A DNA stretch of 64,000 bases from an uncultured Eubacteriales bacterium (lineage in GTDB: Bacteria; Bacillota; Clostridia; Christensenellales; CAG-138): positions 2,739 through 66,738 of the forward strand of contig ONNZ01000001.1 of the NCBI GenBank assembly GCA_900319345.1, in the 5' to 3' direction. Below, one piece after another: positions 25,188 through 48,109 of this stretch. Under the pieces are notes generated by a model that ran no database searches, had not been told where the DNA came from, and saw only the letters and a list, made by a program, of their open reading frames with translations. A program made the position numbers and the translations under genes. How positions within the stretch are numbered: the stretch's first letter is position 1; the number at the start of each line of letters is the position of its first letter.

Positions 25188-25823
25188 GTGATCGGCTTGG
25201 ATGCGGTGGCCGTTTTGCAGGAAAAGTTCGCTGTGAAGGAGATCACGCCCGAAAAGTATCGGACCATGGGGAGCCTGATGATGCGGTTCCACTTGGAACA
25301 GTATGCAGTGGAGGGCCTCGGCAACCTGTGCGTGCTGAAGACTCGCGCTATGCTGGGGCTCATGAACCTGTTGACCGTGGTGGTGACGCCCAGCTCCGGG
25401 AAGAGCGTGCCCTTCCTGCTCATCGACACCATGGACATGGGCAAGAAGCACCTGTGCTACGTGGAATACTACGACTGCACCGCCGGCGGCGCCGACAAGG
25501 ACAAGCTCCTGGCCGCCAGCGCCCCCTACGGGGACGTAGCCGACTACGCCGAAAAGCCCGCCTGGTATGTGCAGGAGCGCATGGCGGGCTCCCTCATCAA
25601 GACCGGGGAAAAGGCGCGCCTTGAACAGATGGCCCTGGACGCCCTGAAGGCCTATACCCAGCAGGCGGCGGCCGCCCCCGTGAAGCCGGAAAACGTGGCG
25701 GGCCTCAAAGCCTTCCAGCAGCGGATGATCCGGGAGGGGAACCCCTCCACCGCTGCCCTCACCAAGACCTTGGGCCAGGAGGGGGCCGAGACCTTCTTTA
25801 GGACCGTGGTCATGCCCGTGTAG
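25188..25823 (+). CDS. hypothetical cytoplasmic protein (about 210 aa)
   Basis: The ORF has AAGGAGG immediately upstream. The real start is probably TTG 25197 (8 nt after the SD) rather than GTG 25188. There is a TTGCTT-17-TATACT promoter at 25141-25169. I recognise no family with confidence. Confidence 0.6.
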   Translation: MIGLDAVAVLQEKFAVKEITPEKYRTMGSLMMRFHLEQYAVEGLGNLCVLKTRAMLGLMNLLTVVVTPSSGKSVPFLLIDTMDMGKKHLCYVEYYDCTAGGADKDKLLAASAPYGDVADYAEKPAWYVQERMAGSLIKTGEKARLEQMALDALKAYTQQAAAAPVKPENVAGLKAFQQRMIREGNPSTAALTKTLGQEGAETFFRTVVMPV

Positions 25824-25953
25824 GGCAGCCCACGAAAACGTGAGCGAATCGGGACGGCGCAGGTCGTCCCGCTTTTTCGGACAATCCGTTGCATTTTTGT
25901 GAACTATTCCCTACGGGATGGCCGGTCAGGCTGGAACGTGCTATGATGGTAAC

Positions 25954-28017
25954 ATGGAAATAGGCGCCCGCCAACCGAATCAAGAGGAAACCGCCGCCCC
26001 CAAGCAACGGGGGCGGACGATCCTGCTGGGCTTCCTGGGCTTTTTGCTGGCCCTGGGGGTGCTGTTGCTGTGGGCATATCACGGCGTATCCCCCTTCGTG
26101 CAGGCGGAATATGGGGAGGGCGTGCCTCCGGTGACCGCCTTCTGCCAGGCGGAGGACGCCTTTCTTTTGGCCGATGAAAGCTGCACCGCCCTGGGAAGGC
26201 ACATGGTGCAGGTGATCACCCGGTTCCGGGTGGTGCCCTGCTGGCTGACCGTCCAGGATACCGTGGCCCCTGTGGCCGCGCCGGTGACGATGACCTTTCC
26301 CTCAGGCTATGTGCCCACCCCGGACCAGTTCATCTCCGATTTGAAGGACGCGGACCGGGTGGGCGTCAGCTTCGTTCAGGAATACGACTTCTCCCCCGCC
26401 GGGGAGCAGGCCGTCGTTATCCGGCTGGAGGACGGCAGCGGCAACGTGAACGAGGTGCAATCGACCGCCGTGGTCCGCTCTACGGTGGACCGGGTCACCA
26501 TGGAGGCGGGCTCCCCCATCCCCGCCGCCGATCCCTTCCTGACCGAGGGCTTCCACGGGGAGCTGCTGGATACGATCACGGACGAGATGATGCGGACACC
26601 GGGGGAATATGTCCTGCGGGTCCAGTGCCCGGAGAACAAACGCATTTTCACCACCGTCCTGGCGATCCAGGACACGGTGGCCCCTGCCGCCACGGGGCAG
26701 CTTTTGGTCCTGGCGCCCGGGGAAGCCGCCGCGCCGGAAGCCTTTCTGACGGACGCGGCCGATGAAACGGCCCTCCAGTATGCCTTCCTTCAGGCTCCGG
26801 ACCCGGACAGCCGAGAGATCCAGGACATCCTGATCCGGATGACGGACGCCGGCGGCAACACAGCCGACGTGCCCGCCCAAATCCTCTACTCCTCCCTGGG
26901 CCGCATGACCATTGAGGCGAAGAATGGCCTGCTCACCGGCGCGGACCTGGGCCGTCCCGAGGCCGAGCCGGAAGCGTTTATGGCCAACACTTTGGGGACC
27001 TATCCCGTTCGGGTCCAGCTGACGGACGGCGTCGAGATCGCCCTGGTGACCGTCGTGGACACCGTCGCCCCCGTCTTGACCCTCCAGGAGGGGCCCTTCT
27101 ACACCCGGCACGCGTATACGCCGGAGGAACTGGTGAACGCTGAGGACGTGACCGGCGCGATCCTGTCCTTCACCCAAGCCCCCGATCAGGACAGCGACCA
27201 GCCTCAGACCTTCTCTGTGCAGGCCGTAGACGCCGCCGGGAACGAAACCATCGCCGCCTTCCCCCTGACCTTGGCTGTGGACGATACGCCCCCCGTCCTC
27301 TACGGCGTGGTGAACCGGAGCGGCTACGTGAACGAGCCCATCGCCTATCTTGCGGAAGCCTACGCCGAGGACGATGTGGACGGGCGGGTGGACATGACCG
27401 TGGAGAGCGGCGTGATCCTGTCCCGAAAGGGCAAGTACACCGTCACCTACACCGCCACGGACAAGAGCGGCAACACCGTCTCCAAGAGCTGCATCTATAC
27501 CCTGGTGGAGCCCTCCGTTACCGACGAACAGGTGCGCCAGATGGCCCAGACCATCCTTTCCGAGATCATCACCCCGGACATGGTCACCGCCGAAAAGCTC
27601 AAAGCCGTCTTCGATTACGTACGGGGCCGGGTCCATTATACCGGGTCCTCCAACAAAAACGATTGGCGTCAGGAGGCCGTCCGAGGCTATGAGGCCCGCC
27701 GGGGAGATTGCTTCACCGTGTACTCCCTGACCCGAGCCTTGCTGGACGAGCTGCAGGTGCCCTACATGAGCGTGACCCGCAAGAGCACCACCAGCCGCCA
27801 TTACTGGGTGATCGTCAACATCGGCACAGGCTGGTACCACTTCGACCCCCTGGTCACCAGCATCCACAAGCATCGCTGCTTCATGTGGACCAACCAGCAG
27901 TGCAAGGTGAAATCCTATTTCTGGCGGTTCCATGAAGAGAACTTCCCCGCCATCGCCACGGAGCCTTTCGACTACAACGCCGTGGTACAGATGGAGCGCG
28001 AAGGCCTGCTGCCCTGA
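25954..28017 (+). CDS. membrane-anchored surface protein with Ig-like repeats and a C-terminal transglutaminase-like cysteine-protease core
   Basis: Track ORF 25918..28017; I prefer ATG 25954 (MEIGARQ). The TM anchor is ILLGFLGFLLALGVLLLWAY. The DTVAPV.. module recurs. The C-terminal RRGDCFTVYSL...SRHYWVIVNIGTGWYHFDP provides the Cys-His-Asp transglutaminase core. Confidence 0.75.
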   Translation: MEIGARQPNQEETAAPKQRGRTILLGFLGFLLALGVLLLWAYHGVSPFVQAEYGEGVPPVTAFCQAEDAFLLADESCTALGRHMVQVITRFRVVPCWLTVQDTVAPVAAPVTMTFPSGYVPTPDQFISDLKDADRVGVSFVQEYDFSPAGEQAVVIRLEDGSGNVNEVQSTAVVRSTVDRVTMEAGSPIPAADPFLTEGFHGELLDTITDEMMRTPGEYVLRVQCPENKRIFTTVLAIQDTVAPAATGQLLVLAPGEAAAPEAFLTDAADETALQYAFLQAPDPDSREIQDILIRMTDAGGNTADVPAQILYSSLGRMTIEAKNGLLTGADLGRPEAEPEAFMANTLGTYPVRVQLTDGVEIALVTVVDTVAPVLTLQEGPFYTRHAYTPEELVNAEDVTGAILSFTQAPDQDSDQPQTFSVQAVDAAGNETIAAFPLTLAVDDTPPVLYGVVNRSGYVNEPIAYLAEAYAEDDVDGRVDMTVESGVILSRKGKYTVTYTATDKSGNTVSKSCIYTLVEPSVTDEQVRQMAQTILSEIITPDMVTAEKLKAVFDYVRGRVHYTGSSNKNDWRQEAVRGYEARRGDCFTVYSLTRALLDELQVPYMSVTRKSTTSRHYWVIVNIGTGWYHFDPLVTSIHKHRCFMWTNQQCKVKSYFWRFHEENFPAIATEPFDYNAVVQMEREGLLP

Positions 28018-28107
28018 GGCACAGCCCGACCCGCAGGGCTGGCCCGCTGACAGGTACAGGCTGGACTGGAAAAGCCTGTTAAGTCTGTGAATATACTTTG
28101 AAATCCG

Positions 28108-28136
28108 TTGCCTTTTCCCCCATAGGGTGGTATACT
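28108..28136 (+). promoter_or_regulatory. possible promoter of the LCP gene (extended -10)
   Basis: TTGCCT (28108-28113), 17 nt spacer, TGgTATACT (-10 at 28131-28136). Confidence 0.35.
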
Positions 28137-28182
28137 GCCGCCACCGAACGGAAAACTGTTTAGGGAGAGATGGATCGATCAA

Positions 28183-29829
28183 ATGAACGACACCGATATG
28201 AACGCGACCGCCCGGGAAGACCTTTCCCGATCTCAAAAAAAGAAGACCCGCAGGATCGTGCTGTGGACGGTGCTGGGCCTGCTGCTGGTGGGCCTGACCC
28301 TAGGCGGCTGGCATGCATATCGGATTTTTAAGAACTCGGCTTCCCTGTTTGCCCACACCCCGGCTGCCACCCCCCTCCCGGAAGCGGCCCTCCTGGTCCC
28401 CGCCTTCCCCTTGAACTCCGCGGTCCCTGACCCTGAACGAGAAGCGGCAGCGATCGCCCCTTCCTCGACGCCAGAGACGACAGATATCCCCGTTGCAGCC
28501 ACCCCAGAGCCCACGGCCACGCCCAAGCCCATAAATCGGTTGAACGTCCTGCTCATGGGCATCGACGCCTATGAGTCTGGCGAAACCAGCAGCGGCACCA
28601 TGCCCCATACGGACGTGATCATGCTCATCGCCATCAACTTCGATGAGAACAAGGTGGACCTGATCTCCCTGCCGCGCGATATCATGACCACAGCTCCGGG
28701 CCACTATGGCATCTACAAACTCAACTGCGTATTCAACGTAGGGCTGGGGGGCTGGAAAGCCCCTGCCGGTCAATCCGACGAGCTGGCGGACGGCTTTCTG
28801 CTGACCTGTCGAGCGGCAGAGGAATGGATGGGCGGCATCTCCATCCCCTACTACTACGGCCTGGACTTCCAGGCGGTCGTCGACATCGTAAACGCCATCG
28901 GCGGCATCGACTACGATGTGGACCAGCCGTTCATTGCTCACGGCGGACAATGGAGCTACAACAAGGGTATGCACCATTTGGATGGAAACGGGGTCTTAGG
29001 CTACCTTCGCATCCGGCAACAAGCCGACGGGCTGGACAGCTCCCGCACGGCCCGACAGCGACGAATGATGGTGGCCATCTTCGAAAAGCTGAAAAGCGAA
29101 GGCAAGCTCAGCCAGATCCCTGCCCTGATCAACACCGCCAGTAGCGGCATCTATACCAACACCACCCTGAGCCAGACCACAGCTTTGGTCAGTTTTGCCG
29201 CGAATCTTGAGGAAGGTAGTATCCAGCCCCGGGCCATGTTCGGAGAACTGGGCGAGATCGAATACGAATGGCGATACGCTTACGTGGATCAGCAGAACCG
29301 GATGGACATCATCCGGGAGGTGTTCGGCATTGAGGCGGAGCCTGTGGGCACCTGCACCCGGCAGTATGAGCGTTGGCTCCACACCGTGGGCTTCTCTGCC
29401 ATGAAGTATATGCGCCAGGCCGAGAAGGTGCTGCACCGGGTCCAGGAGCTGAAGGATGCCGGCCAAACTTTCACGGAGGAGCAGATCGCCCTCTACCGCG
29501 AATGCTACCAGGCGTATGTCGCCCTGAAGGACGGCTTCGACAGCGCCACGGACACCCTTTCGAGCCAATATGCTGTCACCCCTTGGCGGGAAAAGAAGAA
29601 CAGCCAGAAAAACTGGACGGAGGAAAACAAGGCAGTCGACCAGAAGCTCACAAGTCTGGAGACTGACATCCTGCAAAACATGAACGACCTCAAGGCGTCC
29701 TCCAAGAACACCACTATCCGCTTGGGCGACGCAATTGGCTTCAACACTGCCACCTATCTAACCTGGAACGTCCCCATGGGTTGGTTCAACGATCCTGATA
29801 TCAACGAGGTCATTGTCAACTTCGGCTGA
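28183..29829 (+). CDS. LytR-CpsA-Psr (LCP) family glycopolymer-to-peptidoglycan ligase, long C-terminal extension
   Basis: N-terminal TM, a Pro/Thr linker, the LCP core NVLLMGIDAY...HTDVIMLIAINFDENKVDLISLPRDIM...R.RQ, and then a roughly 200-aa helical C-terminal region. Confidence 0.85.
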   Translation: MNDTDMNATAREDLSRSQKKKTRRIVLWTVLGLLLVGLTLGGWHAYRIFKNSASLFAHTPAATPLPEAALLVPAFPLNSAVPDPEREAAAIAPSSTPETTDIPVAATPEPTATPKPINRLNVLLMGIDAYESGETSSGTMPHTDVIMLIAINFDENKVDLISLPRDIMTTAPGHYGIYKLNCVFNVGLGGWKAPAGQSDELADGFLLTCRAAEEWMGGISIPYYYGLDFQAVVDIVNAIGGIDYDVDQPFIAHGGQWSYNKGMHHLDGNGVLGYLRIRQQADGLDSSRTARQRRMMVAIFEKLKSEGKLSQIPALINTASSGIYTNTTLSQTTALVSFAANLEEGSIQPRAMFGELGEIEYEWRYAYVDQQNRMDIIREVFGIEAEPVGTCTRQYERWLHTVGFSAMKYMRQAEKVLHRVQELKDAGQTFTEEQIALYRECYQAYVALKDGFDSATDTLSSQYAVTPWREKKNSQKNWTEENKAVDQKLTSLETDILQNMNDLKASSKNTTIRLGDAIGFNTATYLTWNVPMGWFNDPDINEVIVNFG

Positions 29830-30347
29830 TGGTATCCCGTCGCGGAGCCGCAGCATTGTTCAATCACGGGGATCATGTCGTGCCGTCATCAAAGGCGGCC
29901 GTTTTCGGTCATGATCCCTGACCATCCCCCTTCCTGTGGGGATCTGTTGCATTGCGATCCTTCCGATTGCCGATCCACCATGCCTGCAACCCAGCAGCAG
30001 CAATATAGCACGAACGTAATCAACAGTGCGCACCCGATAATCCAATATGCCATTTTCGATAAAGCCCCTTTCTCGATCCTCTCTTCATAGTATTCCGAAT
30101 CGAGCGGTCTTCCATACTGTACTGTCCTTTGATATCTGTGGGAATATTATTAATGAGTCCTGTTTCCATGTGCAGAATCGAAATGTGCAGACGATTTGCG
30201 CCGATCACGGAAGGACAAAAGAAAATCCGGTCAATTCAAGCTCATATGCCCGTGATACTACCGAAGGAGCAAATCCGGGAATGGATATACTTTATCAAGA
30301 AAAAACCGTGAAAAATGCCGTTCAGTAGATATGTTCGAAAAAGATAA
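29830..30347. other. compositional break / junction between GC-rich core and AT-richer glycan island; no intact gene of 60 aa or more that I can support
   Basis: Sequence lines left of about 29.83 kb are visibly G+C rich. Lines from about 30.1 kb on are A+T rich. The interval holds only short ORFs and a gene remnant. Confidence 0.6.
30183..30311 (+). pseudogene. remnant of an SOS-response-associated peptidase (SRAP/YedK-like) gene with an internal deletion
   Basis: MCRRFAP (compare the invariant SRAP N-terminus MCGRF) runs directly into HMPVILPKEQIREWI (compare the C-terminal RMPVIL...W motif). The roughly 150 residues normally between them are missing. Confidence 0.4.
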
Positions 30348-31925
30348 TCATACAAATTTTCTCTTGGCAATAAACACAGCGTATTTCATAACTACGTTGA
30401 CAACGAGAATCGTTAAACTAACAAACGCTGCACACTCCAGCTGCATCTGTCCCTCAAACTGCGTGATCATCAAAGCGATTGGTTTGTTTCCAACATTAGC
30501 CAAGAAGGATACCGCTGAAATGGTCATCATACAGTTGACGAAGAAATAACTCATCATTTCAAGGATCGTGCTAGTGGACTGTGGAAGCAACACATCCTTT
30601 AATACTCCCCAGCGGCTTATCCCCATCGTGGCGCCAACATCTTCCAGGTTTTCATTGATCTTTCCAAAAGTGTTGTAAGCCATCAGATACGGAGAAGCAA
30701 AAAAGTGCATGGAATTTACGAGGAACAGCATAGCAAAGGTCCCATAAATCGGCGTTGTTTTGAAAAACATCACATAGGAAAGGCCTAAAACAATACCTGG
30801 GATGGCAAGCGATGTAATGGACATTAGATGCAAAACGTAGCTGAGCTTTGTCTTGTTCCGCGCTGTCAAATACGCATTGAACAATGCTAAAGCAGTCCCC
30901 AGAAAGGATACGGTAAACGCTATGATCAAGGAGTTCTTCAGATATCGCAGCGCTCCCATATTGACGGCTTGAGCTGCATTTGTTAAGGAAAACGACATGT
31001 CAATCGGGTATTTTTTCATGAATCCCAGTACGGAGAAGGAACCGATGGGCAGAAAAACCAGTATCACAGTCAAAATGACAATGATCCTTGCGATTCTGTC
31101 GCGTCTTTTGTTTTCCTTTATTCTATACGGCTTCCCAACGAATGCCCCGTTCCCTTTATCTCGATTGGCCATATCAAGGATGCAAGCGATCAGGGCGGGA
31201 ATGAGCAAGATCATGCCTATGACTGACCCTTTTCCGAAATCGAGCATTCCGATCACATCCTGATACATCATAATCGGCAAGGTCATGTATTTCCCGCCGA
31301 CCATAAGTGGGACGCCATAATCGGTTATTATCATGGTGAAAGTAGCGAAGATAACGGAAATAAGCGGTTTTCTCAAATAGGGCAATGTGATCGAGAAGAA
31401 TTTATCTCGTGTCGTAAAGCCCATGACCTCAGCTGCCTCATACGGTGTACCATCCTCATACCTCAACACATCGTACAACATCAGGTATGCAACTGGAAAA
31501 GAGTACATGACCGACCCGATAACGATCCCCAAAAAGCCATAAATGCCGCTTGTAAGGCCTAACGCTCTTGATAGCCAACCATTCGCTCCCAGTAGGATAA
31601 TAAGACCCATGCCATGAGAAATGGAGGGGATCAACATCGGTATGGTGATAAGTGTATTCAATGCTGTCTTATGGTGTATGTTCGTCCTGGCTACTGCCCA
31701 CGACAAAAGCCCTGCCAGCGAAACGGAGATCACCGTGGCCGTGAACGACACCAGTAAAGACTGCCTAAGCGCTTTTGAAAACTTCTTGGCGGTAATGACC
31801 GCTCCAACATCTACCGACGCCATGGTGGACAACATACGGATAAGGGGCAAGACAATTGCGAACAGCCAAAAAACGCAAAGCAGTATCTTCAACGTAGTGG
31901 ACATCGTCCATTTTCTGCCGTTCAT
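30348..31925 (-). CDS. ABC importer permease, fused double transmembrane domain (Fe3+/thiamine/2-aminoethylphosphonate-type architecture)
   Basis: 525 aa with two tandem BPD-transporter inner-membrane domains. Its start overlaps the ATPase stop (ATGA). Confidence 0.85.
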   Translation of the reverse strand: MNGRKWTMSTTLKILLCVFWLFAIVLPLIRMLSTMASVDVGAVITAKKFSKALRQSLLVSFTATVISVSLAGLLSWAVARTNIHHKTALNTLITIPMLIPSISHGMGLIILLGANGWLSRALGLTSGIYGFLGIVIGSVMYSFPVAYLMLYDVLRYEDGTPYEAAEVMGFTTRDKFFSITLPYLRKPLISVIFATFTMIITDYGVPLMVGGKYMTLPIMMYQDVIGMLDFGKGSVIGMILLIPALIACILDMANRDKGNGAFVGKPYRIKENKRRDRIARIIVILTVILVFLPIGSFSVLGFMKKYPIDMSFSLTNAAQAVNMGALRYLKNSLIIAFTVSFLGTALALFNAYLTARNKTKLSYVLHLMSITSLAIPGIVLGLSYVMFFKTTPIYGTFAMLFLVNSMHFFASPYLMAYNTFGKINENLEDVGATMGISRWGVLKDVLLPQSTSTILEMMSYFFVNCMMTISAVSFLANVGNKPIALMITQFEGQMQLECAAFVSLTILVVNVVMKYAVFIAKRKFV

Positions 31926-32707
31926 GCTTGATTCTCCTCTGATCTAGCAAATTGAATCAGGCTGTTGATCTTGATATCGATGTTCTTGATCACAAATCGT
32001 TTCACATACTCATCTGCAGGATGGTTGATGATATTGTGCGGCGTGTCAAGTTGATGGATCACTCCCGCATCCATGACCATGATGCGGTCAGACAGGGCAA
32101 ATGCCTCTTCCTGATCGTGGGTTATATAGATCATCGTTGTACCAAAACGCTTTTGGAGTTCCTTAAGCTCAGCCCTGAGACTCAGCCTGGTATCTACATC
32201 CAGGGCTGACATGGGCTCATCAAAGAGGATTACATCGGGATTTAGGGCAAGCGTTCTTGCAATGGCAACACGCTGCTGTTGTCCTCCAGATAACTGACGA
32301 GGTTTTTTATCAAGATGGTCACTCAGGCCAACCAATTCTAGCATTTCTTTTGCTTTTATTCGCGCCGACTCACGGGTAAAAGATTCTTTCATCCCTTTAC
32401 TCTTCAACAATGCGTACTCAACGTTCCGTAGAACCGACATGTTTTCAAAGAGAGCATAGTTTTGAAAGACGATACCCATCTTCCTCTGTGCAGCCGGAAT
32501 GTTGGTGATATTGATGCCGTCCTTCAGGATTTCCCCGCTATCCGCTGTTTCAAGGCCGATCAAAATGCGCAGGATAGTGGTCTTTCCGCATCCAGAGGGG
32601 CCAAGAATGGATAAGAATTCTCCATCTTGTACGCTAAAGGTGACGCTATGAAGAACACCTGCTTGTCCAAAGGCTTTTGAAAGATTATTGACTACCAGTT
32701 TTTCCAT
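31922..32707 (-). CDS. ABC transporter ATP-binding protein
   Basis: 261 aa from ATG 32707 (MEKLVVNNLSKAF). Walker A GPSGCGKTT, signature LSGGQQQRVAIAR, Walker B ILFDEP. There is no TOBE-type C-terminal domain. Confidence 0.92.
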   Translation of the reverse strand: MEKLVVNNLSKAFGQAGVLHSVTFSVQDGEFLSILGPSGCGKTTILRILIGLETADSGEILKDGINITNIPAAQRKMGIVFQNYALFENMSVLRNVEYALLKSKGMKESFTRESARIKAKEMLELVGLSDHLDKKPRQLSGGQQQRVAIARTLALNPDVILFDEPMSALDVDTRLSLRAELKELQKRFGTTMIYITHDQEEAFALSDRIMVMDAGVIHQLDTPHNIINHPADEYVKRFVIKNIDIKINSLIQFARSEENQA

Positions 32708-32814
32708 TCTTGTCCCCCATTGATGAAAAATATCCTTCGCTGTTCCGCACTTCACATTCAGCCTTATATTTGGAAGCGATGCAGCGCTTGGATCGAAGCA
32801 ACTGATCCATGATC

Positions 32815-32854
32815 GTAAAAAGAAGAATAGGGAGGAAAGCCATCCCTTCCTCCC
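32815..32854 (-). terminator. intra-operon stem-loop/attenuator between the binding-protein and ATPase genes
   Basis: On the minus strand: GGGAGGAA...TTCCTCCC (8-bp arms), followed by TATTCTTCTTTTT. It sits in the 164-nt gap after the binding-protein stop. Confidence 0.5.
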
Positions 32855-32871
32855 CTTTGGCTCAGATAGGA

Positions 32872-33909
32872 CTAATACTCCCAATTCTCCAACAGACGGA
32901 TTTTCTCTTCTGTCGTGTTGTTGGACATATCGGCATAATGGATATTGGTCGGATAATTCTGGATCTCAAAGGTTTTGTACTTGTATATCTGCTCTGGATA
33001 AAAGAGTTCCTTATCTTCAGGAACAAGGGTCGTGTAAAAGAAATCAAACACTTCTCTCACCGCCTTGCGATTCTGCTTCCCCTCTGGCATTGCAATACCA
33101 TATAGAGAGAACGGGGAACCTTCCTCAAAGAAAACGATCTTCAGATTTGCCCCGTCGTTAATCGCCGTAACAGCCTGAGCAGTCATGCCAAGGCCAATAG
33201 CCGCTTCACCCTGTACAAGGGCGTTGACCGGGCCAGAGCCGGAAGACGTAAACTGAAGAACATTCTCTGCAAGCGCACCAAAGTATTCAAACGCCTTATC
33301 CTCGCCCCAAGCGTTTACAAGGCTTTTGACGAACATATAACCAGTACCAGAAGACTTAGGGCTCGGCATGGAGACCAGACCTTTGTATTCCGGCTTGATC
33401 AAATCGGCATAGCAGGTAGGCTCAGCCAGTCCTTTAGCTGCCAATACATCGGGATTGAGGATGATCGCTCCACCGTTGCGGGTTTCGCAAAGATACTTAT
33501 TGCTCACCACTCGGCAGTCGTCCATATAGATGGATTGATCATAGTCGGACACATCAGCAAGATATTGTTCCACAAGACCAGCATAGCTGTAATCCAAATC
33601 ATAAAACAGATCCATATCCGTATCGGTGCCTTCGGCAGCCAGTTTTGCCGCAAGATTGCCAGTAGGCATATACTCGATAGAGATATCGTACTCAGGGAAC
33701 TGTTCCTTTAGACGCTTCATAAAATACTCATTGCGATACTCTTCCGCACCGGAGTAGATAACAACTCGGTTACTGCTGTCATCCAATTTTGAAGCGTTCT
33801 CTGGAGCAGTCGATTTTGCTTCCGCCGATGTCTTGTTGTCCGCAGGAGTGCAGACGACAAGGCTGAAAAGAGACAGTACGATGATCAATACTGCGATCGC
33901 TTTTTTCAT
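32872..33909 (-). CDS. ABC transporter substrate-binding lipoprotein (PotD/ThiB/PhnS-like family 1 SBP)
   Basis: 345 aa. The lipobox is in MKKAIAVLIIVLSLFSLVVC. The body is a typical type-II periplasmic-binding fold. GGAAGG RBS upstream. Confidence 0.85.
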   Translation of the reverse strand: MKKAIAVLIIVLSLFSLVVCTPADNKTSAEAKSTAPENASKLDDSSNRVVIYSGAEEYRNEYFMKRLKEQFPEYDISIEYMPTGNLAAKLAAEGTDTDMDLFYDLDYSYAGLVEQYLADVSDYDQSIYMDDCRVVSNKYLCETRNGGAIILNPDVLAAKGLAEPTCYADLIKPEYKGLVSMPSPKSSGTGYMFVKSLVNAWGEDKAFEYFGALAENVLQFTSSGSGPVNALVQGEAAIGLGMTAQAVTAINDGANLKIVFFEEGSPFSLYGIAMPEGKQNRKAVREVFDFFYTTLVPEDKELFYPEQIYKYKTFEIQNYPTNIHYADMSNNTTEEKIRLLENWEY

Positions 33910-33935
33910 AATGATTATTCCTTCCCATTCGTTGT

Positions 33936-33980
33936 GTTCAATAACAAAAATAATATACGCAATTATTGAACGATTGTCAA
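33936..33980 (-). promoter_or_regulatory. consensus promoter of the ABC operon with an overlapping 9-bp inverted repeat (candidate operator)
   Basis: On the minus strand: TTGACA (33980-33975), 17 nt spacer, TATATT (33957-33952). The inverted-repeat arms GTTCAATAA / TTATTGAAC (33971-33963 and 33944-33936) lie in the spacer and just downstream of the -10 box. Confidence 0.6.
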
Positions 33981-34004
33981 GGGAAATTCAGAATATATGT
34001 GATA

Positions 34005-34041
34005 GCGTCAAAGCAATAATACACAATCATTGCTTTGACGC
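34005..34041 (-). terminator. stem-loop downstream of the LicC-like gene
   Basis: gcgtcaaagcaat / attgctttgacgc form 13-bp arms with an 11-nt loop. The T-tract is weak. Confidence 0.45.
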
Positions 34042-34198
34042 CTGTTATTAGCTCATGTCATGCTTGGCAAATCTGTCGACCCAACCTTTACATAAAAGCA
34101 CTGTGGGCTGTTTTGAATACGAAGCGCCCTGCATGTTCAACGCGACACTATTTGATTTACTATTATGAACACATGGTTATGTTTTGTGAAACGACTGG

Positions 34199-35098
34199 TT
34201 ATACATCATATGTCTTGTCAACGGCTTTCAATTCGTTGAATGTATCAATTTCAATGATGTCTTCAGCAAAACATTCCCGAATCTCAACTTGATAATGTTC
34301 TTTCTTATATACGAGTGGAACCTGCTCCCAGTACCTTTCTCTTCCTCCCGGGCTTTGGAACACGTCCTGTATATCCTGACTCAATCGCTGACCATCCGCC
34401 GTATTCCAATAGCTGATACCGATCAGCTGCCAAATATCGTTTCCTTCGCCTCCAACCTTTTCCTCCACAATAGTGCCATCTTTCACGCGCACGCACCAAT
34501 CATCTGTTCTTTGTTTCTTTATTCCGAGAAAATTTGAAGAATAATGATATTTCTTTATGATCGTCGGGTTGGAAATCAATAGATCAGCTTCAAATACATA
34601 TGCGTTTGAAAGCATATACCTGGTTACCAACGCCGAACTGATGTTGTTGGCTTCATTGTAGATTGGATTCTCTAGAAACTTGATCATAGGGTACTTATAA
34701 AGAAGCTGATCAAACAGTTCTCCCAAGTAGCCACGGACAATGTATATTTCATCGATCCCCGCCTGTAAACAAGCATCTATAAGACGGTCGATAATGCGAA
34801 TGCCATGTACGCGAACAAGCGGCTTTGGTGTATTGAATGTGATCGGCACAAGACGTGTACCAAAACCAGCTGCAACAAAGATAGCTCGCTTTACACGATA
34901 CGGTTCTAGAGCATTTAGTCCGGCATGAGTGATGGCTCCATCCACTACAAAACCGGCTTCCGTTAATTCCTTCATGACACGGTTGATCGTGCCGAGACTA
35001 TGTCCCGTCTGTTTTTCCAAATCTCGCTGTGTCAATGCTTTTGGATTGCTTGCCATGATTTGTAGCACATCGAATTGTTTTCTGGTTAGATTCATCAT
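34199..35098 (-). CDS. winged-helix DNA-binding domain fused to a LicC-like nucleotidyl(cytidylyl)transferase
   Basis: 299 aa. Residues 1-65 (LTRKQFDVLQIMASNPKALTQRDLEKQTGHSLGTINRVMKELTEAGFV) form a MarR/wHTH-like domain. The remainder (AIFVAAGFGTRLVPITFNTPKPLVRV...IIEIDTFNELKAVD) is collinear with pneumococcal LicC as I remember it. Confidence 0.8.
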   Translation of the reverse strand: MMNLTRKQFDVLQIMASNPKALTQRDLEKQTGHSLGTINRVMKELTEAGFVVDGAITHAGLNALEPYRVKRAIFVAAGFGTRLVPITFNTPKPLVRVHGIRIIDRLIDACLQAGIDEIYIVRGYLGELFDQLLYKYPMIKFLENPIYNEANNISSALVTRYMLSNAYVFEADLLISNPTIIKKYHYSSNFLGIKKQRTDDWCVRVKDGTIVEEKVGGEGNDIWQLIGISYWNTADGQRLSQDIQDVFQSPGGRERYWEQVPLVYKKEHYQVEIRECFAEDIIEIDTFNELKAVDKTYDV

Positions 35099-35222
35099 TT
35101 TCCCTCAATGGTTTTATCTATGGACAATTAGCTTTCTCGAATTCGTTTTATCTCAACAATAGTCAGAAAAGCAAAAACACCTTTGCGTCCCTTAACTATT
35201 TAAGCTTGCCCCCCGCTGGAGC

Positions 35223-36104
35223 TTAGCATTCAGTTTGCAGTTGTAAATACCGCCTCCAGGGCATCTTTGCGTCAAAAGCTACGATCTCATGCTCCGAAGC
35301 CCCTTTTATGGGGGTTCGCCAATCGCCGTAAACCCTTGTCAGCACTTCGTCGTATGCAGCAGGGCAATTGATGGTCGTATTCTCAAAAGGCATCTCAACA
35401 CAATTCTCAAACCATTCCGTGTCCCACATAGCATTTGCACCATGGCACTTTACCGATGATTCTCCAACCACATTTGTCCTGGTATCTCCCCAGGCACAAG
35501 CATGAAGGTACTCTTCTTTAAGCTTTACGATGTCGAAATCTTCCCCCATCGTCTCATAATACTTCAGGAAAGAAGGTATATATTTACTATATGCGGCGTT
35601 TCTTTTGCCGGTTCTCCTCTCATACTGATATGCATCATGGCCTCGGATCACTTCCCACAGCCACAATACCTTCTCTTTCTGTTTTTGCCTCTCCTCAATT
35701 GACTCAGGCACATAGAAAAGAGGGAAAATATCGATAAATACCCCACGATCATACTCAGGGCCAATATTCTCCTGTTCCCACCTTGTAAATCCGGTCGTAT
35801 CGCTCCTTCTCAACCTACATGTGCCTGGCAATGCTTCCGCATCAGTATAAATGCATTGAAAAAAATAAGGATATTCGCATTCTCTCGGTGCAACTTCCAT
35901 CAGCTTTTGATAGTCAGGCCATAATAAAGCAAGATCAATATCATCGTCCCAGGGAATAAACCCTTTGTGTCGAACCGCTCCTAACAGTGTGCCTGCATCA
36001 GCATAGTACATTATATTATACTTTTTACAAACAGATATGAATTTTTCAAGAAGATCAAGCTCTACTTTCTGTATTTCTTGAAGATACGCCTCGCTCATAT
36101 TCAC
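35223..36104 (-). CDS. LicD-family phosphotransferase (paralog 1)
   Basis: 293 aa. LLGAVRHKGFIPWDDDIDLAL is the LicD signature. Confidence 0.88.
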   Translation of the reverse strand: MNMSEAYLQEIQKVELDLLEKFISVCKKYNIMYYADAGTLLGAVRHKGFIPWDDDIDLALLWPDYQKLMEVAPRECEYPYFFQCIYTDAEALPGTCRLRRSDTTGFTRWEQENIGPEYDRGVFIDIFPLFYVPESIEERQKQKEKVLWLWEVIRGHDAYQYERRTGKRNAAYSKYIPSFLKYYETMGEDFDIVKLKEEYLHACAWGDTRTNVVGESSVKCHGANAMWDTEWFENCVEMPFENTTINCPAAYDEVLTRVYGDWRTPIKGASEHEIVAFDAKMPWRRYLQLQTEC

Positions 36105-36350
36105 ACCTCATGATAATAGTTCAGCTGCAGACATTAACGAATTCAGCCGTACTCCTGATTTGCCATACCAAAACCCGATTTCCTGTCAAATGCCTTTTAC
36201 CTTAGCAAACCAGGGTATATTTGTATGGATATGATACCACAAGGTAAAGAATCTGTAAAGGATCTCTTGCGTCACCGATACGATACTTCACCTTCTTCGC
36301 TGTATTCGGATGCTTTGCTTGAATATCTTGTCACATGTCGTCTTGTTATT

Positions 36351-36665
36351 TCATCGCGAGAGAATATACGGATCTGACTGATATTTCAGCTGCATATCCT
36401 TAAAGCAGTTTTGCTCCGGCTTATGAAGATACTCGTATACGTCAGCGGCATCCGATACGGTAAACCGGCGAAGGCGTAAGCGTTCCGTTTCAATAGCAGC
36501 TTGTTCTCTGACTATCTTTTCAAAACGCTGATATGTCTTTCCGTCTCTGACCACTTCTTCAAGCCACATCGAAGCAGGCCTGCACCACAACCCGCCATCA
36601 CCGTAAAGGGCCTTATATACAACCATCGGTTCCTCAGTTTCCGAATGCTTAGAGATGCCGATCAC
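36351..36665 (-). pseudogene. gene fragment: 5'-truncated DUF1653 domain joined to the first ~30 residues of a RimJ/GNAT-type acetyltransferase
   Basis: SKHSETEEPMVVYKALYGDGGLWCRPASMW is the DUF1653 core lacking its N-terminus. ETERLRLRRFTVSDAADVYEY is a GNAT N-terminal motif, and then the frame ends. Confidence 0.55.
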
Positions 36666-37553
36666 TTCATACTCATTCCCCTTGAAATGACGATACCTAC
36701 CGGGAAGGATAGTTCTGATTGCTTCTTCGTAAGGATCATGTCCCCGGCATACCGTTCATTTTTCAGGATGCCCTGCACCGTGGTTTCCGTCCATTTGCAA
36801 TTTCTGGGGGAAGGGATATCCAGCGCGTTCAGTTTAACCACAATCGCCGGAAGCGGAGTGCCTTCCCGGTAAAGGTTGAAGATCGACCGGACGATTTCGC
36901 CTTCATTGGGCTCGATCACTGCCTCGCCCTGCTCGTTAAGCCGGTAGCCGTAAAGAGCTGACCAGCGGCTCTGGCCCATCTCATATCGTTTGCGGATACC
37001 CCATTTCAGGTTCTCCGAAATGTTCCGGCTTTCTTCCTGCGCAAAAGCCGAAAGGATGGTCAGTAGCATTTCACCTGAAGCCGTTGCCGTGTCGATCTGC
37101 TCTTTCTCGAAGTAAACATTGACTCCGATCTTCTTCAAATCATCTACGCACTTCAGGCAGTCAAGTGTATTCCGGGCGAACCGGCTGATGCTCTTTGTGA
37201 TGATTGTATCGAGTTTTCCATCCTGGGCGTCCTGAAGCATACGCCGGAACTCTTTTCTCTTTTTCATCGAAGTTCCCGTGATACCCTCGTCCGCGTAGAT
37301 ACCCGCCAGCTTCCAGCCGGGTGTTCTTTCAATTTTCTGCCTGAAGCCTATCATCTGAGGTTCGTCAGTTCTGTCCCAATTATCGACGGTCTGCGGTGAT
37401 GGTACCGGCATAGACGACATAGAATTTATCTCTATTTAATCCAAATACATCAAACAGTGTGTTCTTCTCTCTCTCAACTGGCACAGTCTTCTCAGTATCA
37501 ATCCAATTCCTGACTACATGGACCTTTGCCTTAATGACTGTAACCTTTGGCAT
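36662..37553 (-). mobile_element. degenerate large serine recombinase gene (frameshifted near the catalytic-Ser motif, C-terminal ~half deleted): remnant of an integrative element
   Basis: Track ORF 36662..37420 carries the resolvase-domain blocks GIYADEGITGTSMKKRKEFRRML, ITKSISRFARNT, MLLTILSAFAQEESRNISEN and the start of the recombinase domain. A separate frame from ATG 37553 (MPKVTVIKAK...KFYVVYAGTITADRR*) looks like the original N-terminus. No intact R-V-S motif is present. Confidence 0.7.
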
Positions 37554-38029
37554 GTGCATATAACTCCTTCGTCAACGTATTTCTGTTTTGGAGAACAAAT
37601 CTCCATATGAAAATACCACTTGTTAGCTAAAAAAGCCCACAGGACAGCCAGTATGGTCTGACCAATTATTGCCAACATACCCGGCCATATGGGTTCTAAT
37701 CTCTTGCACAAGAAGCAAATGAGGATATAAATGAGCCCATCAGCCATGCATGCTGCTAGCATCTGACTGTAAGCTAATTCAGATATGCGAGAATATGATA
37801 CTAAAAACGCATCGAATGTCCTTCCGAAGAAAATATATAATAGCACATATAGAACGAACACATACAGCCGCGCGTTGCGAGCGAACAAAGCTGCTGTGTG
37901 GTTTGCATAATAAAGGTTCCAACACAATGCAAACGGTAATGTTATCAAGCATACAGCCAGCAGTTCGACGATCCGCAAGCTGACATCATGTTTTAAGCTC
38001 CGCATCAGTCTTCTCTCTCCAATTCCCAA
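37514..38029 (-). pseudogene. N-terminal membrane portion of a polyprenyl-phosphate glycosyl-1-phosphate transferase (priming PGT), truncated before the catalytic domain
   Basis: About 150 aa with four TM helices, including FGRTFDAFLVSYSRISELAYSQMLAACMADGLIY. This is typical of the N-terminus of large EPS/CPS sugar transferases. The frame then runs into the recombinase 5' end and stops. No Bac_transf catalytic domain follows. Confidence 0.5.
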
Positions 38030-38188
38030 CTGGAATCACGCACATAACAGATTCCATGATTTTGTCACGCCTTCGGCATTCAAAACGAAGCATTCGCTTT
38101 GATTGGCCGTTTTCTTTCTGTCAGCCGAGTGGTTTCGGGGCGGCTATGGCCGCGCACCGTCCGTTGCGGCGTCCTGTCCTGCGACCGG

Positions 38189-38869
38189 TCATACAAGTCC
38201 CTTCAACCAGTCGTTTGTCCGTTTCATGATGGCTTCCCAATCGTCGGCGTATCGCGCCCGACAGGTGATCCAATCTTCATAACCCGTTTCGGTACCGTGG
38301 ATATCGCTGCCTACAGCCACGATGAGGTCTTCTCGGATCCATCTGTGAAGATGACCCATTCCAAAGATTCTCTTCAGGTGATCTGCGTTGACCTGTCCAA
38401 AGACTCGATCCATATGGAACAGGTTCTCCACATCTTTGCGATCATAGCGATCCACATGGGCCAGCACGATGTGGAAGTCGTCGTCCTCTGAGAGGGCTTC
38501 CACCGAATCCAGCAATCCCTCCGACCAATGATGGAAAGGCATTTCCAGCAGTAGCACTTTTGTACCCTGAAGCCGAAGTTCTTTCAGATCCGGAAGGCGT
38601 TCGATGCCCTCAAAAGCCAGCACCTCCGCGCCCAAAAGGACCTGAGGGCTGTTTTGCGGTGCATGGGACATGAGCTCTTGATAACAGCGCTGTCGCTTCT
38701 CTACAAAGCTCTCCACGCTTATCTGGTGCCCATAGAAATGGGACGTGGCGCATACGATCCTCACCCCAGCTGCCCGAGCCAGCCTCAGCTGCCGCCGGGA
38801 GGTCTCCCATTCATCGCTGCCGTGATCGCAGCCGGGCAGGATATGGGCATGAAAATCAATCTCCATCAT
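38189..38869 (-). CDS. cpsB: CpsB/CapC-type PHP-domain protein-tyrosine phosphatase
   Basis: 226 aa. MMEIDFHAHILPGCDHGS, ATSHF, LAHVDRY and VGSDIHG are the PHP metal-ligand motifs. Confidence 0.85.
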   Translation of the reverse strand: MMEIDFHAHILPGCDHGSDEWETSRRQLRLARAAGVRIVCATSHFYGHQISVESFVEKRQRCYQELMSHAPQNSPQVLLGAEVLAFEGIERLPDLKELRLQGTKVLLLEMPFHHWSEGLLDSVEALSEDDDFHIVLAHVDRYDRKDVENLFHMDRVFGQVNADHLKRIFGMGHLHRWIREDLIVAVGSDIHGTETGYEDWITCRARYADDWEAIMKRTNDWLKGLV

Positions 38870-38885
38870 CTTTTATATCCGTCCC

Positions 38886-39701
38886 TTACTTGCCTCTCTC
38901 GTATCCATATTTATAGCCGTACTTATAGCCATATTTATAGCCGTACTTGTATCCGTACTTGCCGCCTTGCTTCAGGCTGATATCGTTGATGACCACGCCG
39001 CAGATCCGAGCCCCGGCGCTGACCAATGCTCCCTCCGCATCTGCCAGCTCCCGCTGTTTCGTATGCCCCGAACGTACCACCAGCACCATGCCGTCCACCA
39101 GCCGGGATACGATCTGTGCATCAGCTACCTCGTTGATGGGGGGCAAGTCGATGATGATATAGGCATACTGCTTGCGGAATCTGTCGATCTCAGTTTGAAA
39201 CGCAGCTGAAGCCAGCATCTCCGATGGGTTGGGCGGGATCTTGCCCACGGGAAGGATGGATAGAGGGATCCCCTCCACACCGAAGACATTGCACACATCC
39301 ATGTTGGCCAGCAGGTCGCTGAGGCCGTTCTTGGTGTGGATGCGCCAAAGCCGGGCCACATTGGGCTTGCGCATGTCGCAGTCGATGAGGAGCGTGGGCT
39401 TGCCCAGCATGGCGAAGGCGATGGCGATGTTGCTGGCGGTCAGGCTCTTGCCCTCGGCGGGGTTGGGGCTGGTCACACCGAAGACGCGGCACTCGGATTC
39501 GCCCTGGGAGGCCACGCTGTACATCAAGTTGGTCCTGAGCTGGATATAGGACTCCCGGATGGCGAAGGCGCTTTTCCGGGTCAGCAGTTTTTTCCGGTTC
39601 TCCCGGATCGCTTCCCGATCGCTCTCCACCCGCTTGGCGGGCTTTTTCCGGTTCGTTACGGCGGGGACCGCCTCCGTGGGTCTCTTTTCTTTAGTTTCCA
39701 T
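38886..39701 (-). CDS. cpsD: CpsD/CapB-type bacterial tyrosine kinase (BY-kinase)
   Basis: 271 aa. Walker A SPNPAEGKS, Walker A' LIDCDMRKP, Walker B IIIDLPP, and a C-terminal Tyr cluster KYGYKYGYKYGYKYGYKYGYERGK. Confidence 0.9.
   Translation of the reverse strand: METKEKRPTEAVPAVTNRKKPAKRVESDREAIRENRKKLLTRKSAFAIRESYIQLRTNLMYSVASQGESECRVFGVTSPNPAEGKSLTASNIAIAFAMLGKPTLLIDCDMRKPNVARLWRIHTKNGLSDLLANMDVCNVFGVEGIPLSILPVGKIPPNPSEMLASAAFQTEIDRFRKQYAYIIIDLPPINEVADAQIVSRLVDGMVLVVRSGHTKQRELADAEGALVSAGARICGVVINDISLKQGGKYGYKYGYKYGYKYGYKYGYERGK
38901..38960. repeat. 5 x 12-bp imperfect tandem repeat encoding the (KYGY)n tyrosine cluster of the kinase
   Basis: gtatccatattt atagccgtactt atagccatattt atagccgtactt gtatccgtactt. 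Confidence 0.9.
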
Positions 39702-40536
39702 GAGTGATCTCCTCCTTTACGGACACGTTCCAGGGCTCCGGAGCTTCGCCGGCCACCTCCACATGGGGGATGTTTCCAATGACGGGACAGCTGGTCACCT
39801 TGGCGATCTCCTCTGCGGAATAGATGGTGGTGTCCAACAGGGCCCTGAGCACGAAGAAGGCCGCGGAAGCCACCAAGCCCGCCAGCAAGCCGATGGCCAC
39901 ATTTTTGGTCAAGCTGGGGCTGGAATGGGTCCTGGGTACGGTCGCGTAGTCCACGACTTCCACACCGCCTGCCTTGGTGATGCGCGTGATCTCGTCGGGG
40001 ACATACCGGGCGAAGGTGTTGGCGATATCGGCGGACAGCTGAGGGTTCACGGTCACCACCTTGATCTCCAGCAGCTTGGTGCCGGTGGGCACGTTCACAG
40101 AGGTAGCCCTGCTGATCATGGAGGCTGTAACGTTGAAGTTCACATATTCCGGGTGCTCCTGGTTCATGCGCTCCGCCACCACTGCAAGGGCCGTGTTGCT
40201 CTTGACGATGGTCTGGTATGTTTTGATCAGATTGTCTGCCGCAGAAAGCTCAGCGCTGGTGATGGCCCCGGACTCGGAGCTCTTGGGGTTCGTATATACA
40301 TATAGGGAAGCGGTGGCCAAATACTTCTTGGTGATAAAGAAGGCGGTCACCACGCCCGTCAAAATGGCAGCCACCAGGCCAACGACGACGATGGGTATCC
40401 ATTTGCTGAGGATCACCTGAAGGATCTCCATCAGGTCGATCTCGGTATCATCATAGGTACGCTTTGCTGTTTCCAATGTTGCTTCTTCCTTTCCGAAAAA
40501 CTTCTCTGCTGCGGCATACACATACCTTCTGCCCAC
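39691..40536 (-). CDS. cpsC: Wzz/CpsC-type chain-length determinant (kinase transmembrane activator)
   Basis: TEIDLMEILQVILSKWIPIVVVGLVAAIL..., a periplasmic-type loop, and a second TM IGLLAGLVASAAFFVL. It overlaps cpsD by 11 nt. The track start is GTG 40536; TTG 40476 behind GGAAAGGAAG is an alternative. Confidence 0.85.
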   Translation of the reverse strand: MGRRYVYAAAEKFFGKEEATLETAKRTYDDTEIDLMEILQVILSKWIPIVVVGLVAAILTGVVTAFFITKKYLATASLYVYTNPKSSESGAITSAELSAADNLIKTYQTIVKSNTALAVVAERMNQEHPEYVNFNVTASMISRATSVNVPTGTKLLEIKVVTVNPQLSADIANTFARYVPDEITRITKAGGVEVVDYATVPRTHSSPSLTKNVAIGLLAGLVASAAFFVLRALLDTTIYSAEEIAKVTSCPVIGNIPHVEVAGEAPEPWNVSVKEEITHGN

Positions 40537-40712
40537 ACGGACATAAATATAGAGTTTATAATTTTCTACATAGAATCGTACGATAAGTCAACACATGGGC
40601 GTCATTCAAAATAAATATACAGAATAAGATATATTTGTAATCAAAACATTTGTCCCGTTCTTCTTAGATACTCGGCATCTACGATGCATTTCTTTCTTTT
40701 TCTCCCCCTTCC

Positions 40713-45884: not shown

Positions 45885-45925
45885 ATCGATCCCTCCAAAA
45901 ACCGTGTTTTGTTCTGATATGTATC

Positions 45926-46741: not shown

Positions 46742-46784
46742 CGTCAATCTCTCCTTGATATTTGTTTTTTGTTCTATACACGCA

Positions 46785-48062: not shown

Positions 48063-48109
48063 GTTTTTCCTTCCTGAGCCTCTTATCTGCCCACAGACAA
48101 ATCTTCGTA

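Follow-up and report, generated by a model that had tools for sequence, protein, structure and literature searches.

How might a bacterium use a LicC-type cytidylyltransferase if its genome offers neither a choline kinase nor a phosphoenolpyruvate (PEP) mutase (Ppm) to prepare a phosphorus-bearing substrate? The question is raised by five neighboring genes in a 64,000-nucleotide stretch of contig ONNZ01000001.1 (positions 2,739 to 66,738) from an uncultured Eubacteriales bacterium of lineage CAG-138, referred to below as the window. These genes encode a LicD-family transferase, a LicC-like nucleotidyltransferase preceded by a winged helix-turn-helix (wHTH) domain, a lipoprotein substrate-binding protein (SBP), a short ATPase, and a 525-aa fused double permease (Table 1). 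This layout had been proposed from the DNA letters without database searches (hereafter, the sequence-only reading), and our open reading frame (ORF) and Pfam analyses confirm it: all five ORFs are present on the minus strand, are intact, and have plausible starts. On the evidence assembled here, all of it computational, we favor with somewhat better than even confidence the view that the module serves the salvage of 2-aminoethylphosphonate (AEP) for capsule decoration, as a variant of the phosphonyl-tailoring (Pnt) pathway fed by salvage.

According to this proposal, the lipoprotein SBP would capture free AEP outside the cell, AEP being plentiful in the rumen as a product of ciliates, and the ATPase and double permease would bring it inside. 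The LicC-fold enzyme would then use CTP to convert AEP to CMP-AEP. Since such a substrate already bears phosphorus, neither a kinase nor PEP mutase would be needed. A LicD-type transferase of the surrounding capsule island, possibly the adjacent one, would put the phosphonate headgroup on the polysaccharide as the presumed acceptor, and the winged helix fused to the enzyme would probably bind a GTTCA-N26-TGAACA motif over the importer promoter, resulting in regulated uptake.

Headgroup supply in the genome of the window

The sequence-only reading had pointed to the lack of a LicA-type kinase and of PEP mutase in the module, and genome-wide searches bear out both observations. Within the genome of the window (2.14 Mb, 68 contigs, 90% complete), a six-frame search for choline kinase (PF01633) gave no match, and a single marginal protein of the generic APH family, located on another contig (contig 33), scored 23.9 bits. 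The kinase search is informative, since PF01633 recognizes the kinase parts of wHTH-LicC-kinase fusions in related bacteria (50-55 bits by Pfam on their ORFs); among 50 other importer-carrying genomes, the same six-frame search exceeded the cut-off in 7. For PEP mutase, weak superfamily matches were all that appeared, the best TIGR02320 score being 59 bits against a cut-off of 320. The decarboxylase Ppd and the aminotransferase AEPT are likewise not present, and licA, ppm, and ppd are all missing from this genome. A class-V aminotransferase of the capsule island was considered as an AEPT and rejected (24% identity to AEPT; PhnW score of 110 bits against a cut-off of 401). Neither the phosphonatase PhnX nor a true PhnW is found, and catabolic use of imported AEP is therefore unsupported.

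As a separate observation, contig 34 of genome G000 (L001, L002) carries two tandem genes of the PEP mutase/isocitrate lyase superfamily (320 and 313 aa) that score far below the Ppm cut-off, and similar tandem sets recur in several genomes of the same genus.

The cytidylyltransferase and the importer

Pfam assigned the cytidylyltransferase a MarR_2/HTH_24 winged helix followed by an NTP_transferase domain, and the GXG(T/S)RX8PK signature of LicC/PntC-type enzymes (PF00483/PF12804) is present as GFGTRLVPITFNTPKP. The alignment of the window enzyme with pneumococcal LicC (1jyk, E = 1.8e-23) spans the full length, and that with Tde-PntC (6pd1) the N-terminal half only; these alignments alone are not decisive because Ari-PntC is itself nearer LicC than Tde-PntC (Rice et al. 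2019, PMC6697681). The same study ascribes specificity to pocket size, with Asp105/Asp192 in LicC versus Glu104/Glu196 in Tde-PntC. At the LicC Asp105 position, 4 of 4 AEP-specific PntCs (Oul, Ari, Bfr, and Tde) have Glu, and the supplementary alignment reads DAD at this first site for Spn- and Hin-LicC. The window enzyme carries Glu170 (VFEAD) at the Asp105 position and Glu258 (YWEQV) at the Asp192 position, i.e., a Glu/Glu pair instead of the LicC pair. The second-site Glu258 matches Tde- and Bfr-PntC, and the motifs NNISS and TDDW are common to the window enzyme, Oul-PntC, and Ari-PntC.

We looked for relatives of the enzyme in a sample of 399 genomes from the same class as the genome of the window. 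The closest homologues (G218, G420, and G240; 73-75% identical over the enzyme domain) are each encoded at the head of an operon whose next genes specify a class-V aminotransferase (AEPT), a CTP_transf_like-Ppm fusion, and a thiamine-diphosphate decarboxylase (Ppd), the canonical route of AEP biosynthesis. For a further homologue (G397, 68% identical), AEPT and Ppd adjoin and Ppm lies 13 kb away. All six active-site motifs that we compared are identical in Ppm-linked and importer-linked enzymes. In addition, in a maximum-likelihood tree, three importer-linked enzymes grouped with four Ppm-linked ones (clade support 95/90), the kinase-fused enzymes forming a separate clade (100/98) and the Asp/Asp LicC-like enzymes another. 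The comparison of LicC with PntC that the sequence-only reading had called for thus groups the window enzyme with Ppm/AEPT-linked PntC enzymes, and by clade membership and pocket identity we assign it to the PntC type, a predicted phosphonate-activating clade. The nucleotidyltransferases fused to Ppm in relatives were rejected as PntC references, being of the TagD type (PF01467) and not of the LicC fold.

The importer is tied to this enzyme across genomes. The SBP was found in the genomes of 56 named species, nearly all of them metagenome-assembled genomes (MAGs) from rumen or gut, belonging to Lachnospiraceae, Oscillospiraceae, Ruminococcaceae, Acutalibacteraceae, Christensenellaceae, Erysipelotrichaceae, and Selenomonadales; further carrier MAGs are labeled Flexilinea, Synergistaceae, Coriobacteriales, and Bacteroides uniformis. 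The module is mobile, spread over several Bacillota families and these other labels. In 37 of the 56 genomes, the importer has an enzyme homologue (at least 45% identical) no more than 1.5 kb away, and in 10 of the 56 permease and enzyme form one continuous ORF in the order permease-winged helix-enzyme. In three genomes (L054, L056, and L060), the importer operon sits between the enzyme gene and Ppm...Ppd, a direct tie of the importer to phosphonate metabolism. Among 50 carrier genomes searched whole, MAGs of unstated completeness, Ppm is present in 4 and missing in 46, a choline/ethanolamine kinase is present in 7, and 40 lack both. A strict rule of Ppm or importer but never both is contradicted by the three genomes that have both in one cluster. 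A search of five Ppm-type genomes with one SBP query gave no match, which does not by itself prove absence.

The three importer proteins score best against the putative AEP importer equivalogs PhnS2T2U2 (TIGR03261/03265/03262), at 159 bits for the SBP (PhnS2, cut-off 393), 312 bits for the ATPase (PhnT2, cut-off 458), and 369 bits for the permease (PhnU2, cut-off 593). Clostridial permease-wHTH-cytidylyltransferase fusions (P0125 and P0126) share 38-40% identity with the window permease over their permease part. We considered and rejected the possibility that the window permease is itself a truncated fusion, since its end coincides with that of the permease part in the fusions and tblastn shows no remnant of a second enzyme domain. 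For the ATPase, the long ORF spans 31922-32884, but translation probably begins at the ATG at 32707, which is preceded by a GGGGGA ribosome-binding site; this start is backed by the length of homologues (251-267 aa) and by alignments that begin at residue 60 of the long ORF.

The SBP has a signal peptide with lipobox Cys20, and its best Pfam match is SBP_bac_6. Its closest solved sequences, 8x1a and 4r72 (both E = 1e-25) as well as 6wce, are those of the AfuA, VcA0625, and P5PA group. Foldseek with an AF2 model (pLDDT 91) likewise ranked AfuA, VcA0625, and P5PA first (E ~1e-21), with ferric binders at ~1e-16 and Salmonella STM0429 (4r6y) below the ferric-ion binders. The SBP therefore groups with organophosphate binders and not with iron or thiamine binders, which answers a check that the sequence-only reading had left pending. 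The ligands are hexose phosphates for AfuA and pyridoxal phosphate for P5PA, and both, as members of the organophosphate-binding cluster-D proteins, contact the phosphate through Ser/Thr37-Gly38, Ser148-Gly149-Thr150, and Ser184-Gly185 (PMC4546632, PMC8427247). The window SBP aligns T83-G84, S187-G188-T189, and S223-G224 to these contacts, and across 45 homologues these residues either never vary or are conserved to at least 90%. The ring contacts His205, Asp206, and Glu229 of AfuA/P5PA are Ala, Gln, and Ser in the window SBP, and several acidic residues are invariant among its homologues in place of the ring contacts. A pocket of this kind would suit a small, phosphorus-bearing cationic headgroup.

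Collectively, the missing kinase, Ppm, and phosphonatase, the importer-enzyme linkage, and the organophosphate type of the SBP support the earlier proposal that a phosphorus-bearing headgroup is imported and directly cytidylylated. That proposal had left AEP, phosphocholine, and phosphoethanolamine side by side as substrates; the Ppm/AEPT-linked clade and the enzyme pocket now favor AEP over the other two.

The winged helix may regulate the importer. A near-consensus promoter-like site precedes the SBP gene, and the GTTCA-N26-TGAACA motif occurs twice in the window, both times before the importer operon, with 0.13 sites expected by chance. The motif lies no more than 400 bp upstream of the SBP gene in 35 of 56 related loci (L051-L106), is kept even where the proteins share only 35-40% identity, and also precedes some wHTH-enzyme and wHTH-LicC-kinase genes (L043, L044, L049, L096, L098, and L099). 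Since the winged helix is the common partner of the motif, it is probably a real DNA-binding regulator, and the motif is probably its operator. A 16-bp hairpin at 34005-34041 was rejected as the operator; it is not conserved at related loci, whereas GTTCA-N26-TGAACA is. The terminator-like hairpin between the SBP and ATPase genes (Table 1) might raise the ratio of SBP to transporter.

Several arrangements of these domains were observed in addition. The permease-wHTH-enzyme fusions are ~860 aa long (L003:5312-7903, L006:13859-16438, L091, L092, L094-L099, L104, and L106), usually have a second, stand-alone wHTH-cytidylyltransferase nearby, and amount to a membrane-tethered enzyme-regulator, which is unusual. 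Fusions of LicC-like enzymes with choline/ethanolamine kinases are ~600 aa long (L042:1703-3451, L043:8510-10294, L044:9557-11407, L045:9872-11707, L049:9384-11150, and L050:10892-12784), apart from one of 914 aa (L046:9274-12018); the winged helix mostly precedes their LicC-like domain, and most adjoin a second, unfused LicC-like gene, whose product has an Asp/Asp pocket in some genomes and a Glu/Glu pocket in others. At L041:9606-11807 (G366), a wHTH-cytidylyltransferase 57% identical over the enzyme domain directly adjoins a galactokinase-like GHMP kinase, which suggests that part of the family may activate a sugar-1-phosphate and not a phospho-amine. Finally, Ppm/Ppd clusters at L018:4092-9035 and L054:11527-17021 share a recurring set of a metallophosphoesterase, an epimerase-like SDR, DUF6564, and a saccharopine-dehydrogenase-like gene; no AEPT was seen there by BLAST filter, and their product may be other than plain AEP.

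Table 1. Features of the module and its surroundings in the window
Feature	Position	Strand	Evidence
Low-GC 10.9-kb block absent from the closest relative's contig (L113): module, recombinase remnant, and cpsCDB	29831..40697	.	blastn, GC
Fused double permease, PhnU2-like, complete, 525 aa	30348..31925	-	BPD_transp_1 x2, NCBIfam
ABC (ATP-binding cassette) ATPase, 261 aa, without PotA/PhnT-type C-terminal regulatory domain	31922..32707	-	ABC_tran 122 bits
Terminator-like hairpin and T-run between SBP and ATPase genes	32829..32855	-	consensus scan
Lipoprotein SBP, PhnS2-like, 345 aa, predicted organophosphate/phosphonate pocket	32872..33909	-	SBP_bac_6
Promoter-like TTGACA-17-TATATT of the importer operon, overlapped by GTTCA-N26-TGAACA (motif 33935-33971)	33935..33980	-	
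Second GTTCA-N26-TGAACA copy, overlapping a weaker promoter-like site (34190-34162)	34134..34171	.	motif scan
Winged helix (residues 1-65) and LicC-fold cytidylyltransferase, PntC clade, 299 aa	34199..35098	-	Pfam, 1jyk, tree
LicD-family phosphotransferase, candidate headgroup transferase by adjacency	35223..36098	-	PF04991 143.7 bits

Transfer to the capsule and competing explanations

A number of observations weigh against AEP salvage and have to be set beside the evidence above. The Glu/Asp rule is based on just six characterized enzymes. Glu/Glu enzymes also adjoin choline/ethanolamine kinase fusions (L042 and L043), so that phosphoethanolamine stays a possible substrate, and more distant homologues of the enzyme (52-61% identical) stand alone or beside a GHMP sugar kinase. 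All three importer proteins fall below the curated PhnS2/T2/U2 cut-offs, making them relatives and not members of an equivalog that is itself labeled putative. The three importer-containing Ppm loci show no AEPT by BLAST filter and may therefore make a different phosphonate. The genome is only 90% complete, and the functions of the importer and enzyme clades are predictions from computation.

Among the alternatives, the one that fares best holds that the imported headgroup is a phosphate ester, i.e., phosphoethanolamine or phosphocholine from host or dietary lipids, which would be activated to its CDP form and transferred by LicD. The full-length alignment to LicC, the retention of the aromatic-box residues Trp201, Tyr256, and Trp257, and the fact that the nearest solved relatives of the SBP bind phosphate esters and not phosphonates all fit this view, and the Glu/Glu enzymes beside kinase fusions would fit a small primary-amine phosphate such as phosphoethanolamine. 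However, both Asp residues that make room for trimethylammonium in LicC are Glu in the window enzyme, as in the AEP-specific Tde-PntC, the clade of the enzyme is linked to Ppm/AEPT and not to kinases, Asp/Asp LicC-like enzymes form a clade of their own, and the importer is found inside Ppm clusters in three genomes. We regard a phosphate ester as unlikely.

If AEP is indeed taken up and activated, the transfer step comes next, and here the genomic setting matters. The five-gene module is part of a strain-specific 10.9-kb insertion, near whose left end (around position 30000) the GC content drops from ~63% to 44%. When compared by blastn with the contig of the closest relative (L113), positions 25399-29830 of the window are 97.8% identical, 29831-40697 have no match, and matching resumes at 40698 with 80-83% identity. 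The left junction, 29830, is the stop codon of a conserved LCP gene, and the low identity of the right flank points to recombination at a hypervariable capsule locus. Also within the block are a DUF1653 gene and a truncated serine recombinase (Resolvase/Recombinase fragment, 36662-37420), and the block forms the edge of a larger low-GC capsule island with rmlABCD, Wzx, Wzy, glycosyltransferases, and two more LicD genes.

The LicD ORF of the module (35223-36104, likely start ATG 36098) matches PF04991 over profile positions 1-227, has the acidic WDDDID motif, and precedes the same-strand cytidylyltransferase gene by 124 bp. Ppm clusters of relatives come with genes of the LicD family, an association likewise reported by Rice et al. 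(2019, PMC6697681). Two further points count against the proposed reading at this step: the recombinase remnant breaks the capsule operon upstream, and orthologues of the adjacent LicD (57-62% identical) belong to another cassette in 5 of 5 contexts examined (L114 and L115 among them). That cassette has the order aminotransferase, CTP_transf_like-GFO, LicD, acetyltransferase, LicD, with the orthologue always as its last gene and neither importer nor PntC nearby. The window has its own such cassette at 44721-49183, which lacks the acetyltransferase and the second LicD, and the LicD beside the importer may be a displaced member of a cassette of this type. The three LicD paralogues of the island are 27-30% identical to one another. 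The view that the LicD beside the importer is a conserved partner of the module is not supported. Of the LicD-mediated transfer in the sequence-only reading, the intact gene adjoining the enzyme stands, whereas the placement of its orthologues makes this the least supported part of the scheme; the role of the adjacent LicD follows from adjacency and is its weak link.

These same features could mean that the locus is a nonfunctional or partly functional mosaic produced by recombination at the hypervariable capsule locus, with genes that do not cooperate and, even if the importer and enzyme work, a product that is not transferred to the capsule. The position of the strain-specific insertion beside a truncated recombinase and the cassette to which the LicD orthologues belong are in keeping with such a mosaic, which we nonetheless consider improbable. 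None of the five ORFs is interrupted, their starts are plausible, a strong promoter-like site and a conserved operator-like motif are present, and the island offers three LicD paralogues together with Wzx, Wzy, and glycosyltransferases. Moreover, cattle and sheep gut metagenomes from at least seven studies contain 93-100% of the words sampled from the stretch, the habitat having been checked against the run metadata. RNA libraries of three studies contain short contigs that agree with parts of each of the five genes at 99% identity or more, which is consistent with transcription, yet DNA carry-over is possible and tempers this support for AEP salvage as well. None of these contigs covers 36037-36700, a gap that is not readable as silence.

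A classical choline route, in which the importer takes up choline and an unrecognized, non-orthologous kinase elsewhere in the genome phosphorylates it, appears very improbable. The marginal APH-family protein and the incomplete genome leave some room for such a kinase, but the SBP retains a full phosphate-binding pocket, the enzyme pocket is not LicC-like, 43 of 50 carrier genomes lack a PF01633 kinase, and the search that detects the kinase fusions of the class found nothing in the genome of the window. The idea that the importer serves nutrition independently of the neighboring glycan genes, through uptake of AEP for its phosphorus or nitrogen or through uptake of iron or thiamine, is hardly tenable: all characterized AEP importers (PhnSTUV, AepXVW, and AepSTU) are catabolic (PMC8316502) and the fold family includes iron and thiamine binders, but PhnX and true PhnW are missing, ferric binders are structural matches five orders of magnitude weaker than organophosphate binders, and the adjacency and fusion of importer and enzyme described above tie uptake to activation.

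Known systems and biological meaning

AEP salvage for capsule decoration, as proposed here, is most akin to the Pnt pathway (PMC6697681), with which the module shares a LicC-fold enzyme that has the PntC-type Glu at the LicC Asp105 position and would be expected to form CMP-AEP, close relatives of that enzyme in Ppm/Ppd/AEPT operons, and LicD and polysaccharide genes nearby. The Pnt pathway has Ppm, Ppd, and AEPT, whereas the genome of the window lacks them and has an SBP-dependent ABC importer instead; the enzyme of the module also differs by its N-terminal winged helix and, in some genomes, by fusion to the permease. Genome mining guided by Ppm is blind to loci of this kind. The Lic pathway of S. 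pneumoniae and H. influenzae (LicB, LicA, LicC, and LicD) has the same logic of import, nucleotide activation, and glycan transfer of a small cationic phospho-headgroup, with the same folds for the LicC and LicD steps (1jyk and PF04991). It has LicA, which the module lacks, and the importer of the module is an ABC system rather than LicB (LicB itself was not searched for). The LicC pocket has Asp105/Asp192 versus Glu/Glu in the module, and true LicC-like and LicA-fused enzymes fall in clades separate from that of the window enzyme.

On the uptake side, the importer has the SBP family (PF13343), the three-part layout, and the fused double permease of PhnSTUV/PhnS2T2U2, AepXVW, and AepSTU (PMC8316502), with PhnS2/T2/U2 as its best-scoring NCBIfam models even though the scores are below the equivalog cut-offs. 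Those known importers feed catabolism (PhnWX, PhnWAY), whereas the importer of the module goes with an anabolic cytidylyltransferase, and its genome lacks phosphonatase. The hexose-6-phosphate binders AfuA and VcA0625 and the pyridoxal-5-phosphate binder P5PA (PMC4546632, PMC8427247) are the closest solved proteins by both sequence and fold and share the Ser/Thr-Gly phosphate contacts, but their sugar- and pyridine-ring contacts are replaced in the SBP of the module, where invariant acidic residues appear instead.

In the literature that we searched, mostly outside subscription journals, no description of bacterial AEP salvage for surface decoration was found; the principal catalogue of phosphonate clusters was compiled by following Ppm. 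Rumen protozoa were the source from which AEP was originally isolated (Horiguchi and Kandatsu 1959, as cited in PMC10590968), and the use of AEP as a protozoal marker has been questioned since it also occurs in bacteria and feed (PMC4659874).

We tentatively postulate, at slightly less than even confidence, that many rumen and gut bacteria from several phyla, unable to make C-P bonds, display AEP salvaged from ciliates or diet by means of a dedicated importer that is coupled or fused to a bifunctional cytidylyltransferase-repressor sensing the headgroup, and that Ppm surveys underestimate phosphonoglycans. Bacterial surface phosphonate is now predicted from the presence of PEP mutase. If the proposal is true, organisms without Ppm can carry phosphonates, and Ppm-guided surveys would miss them. 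It would also provide a molecular explanation for the appearance of AEP, a marker of rumen protozoa, in rumen bacteria, and AEP importers, so far known from catabolism only, would gain an anabolic role. The enzyme-regulator and permease-enzyme fusions would represent an unusual coupling of uptake, sensing, and activation. Since the module is mobile and its range of carriers is wide, it may be a common means of changing the surface chemistry of gut communities.

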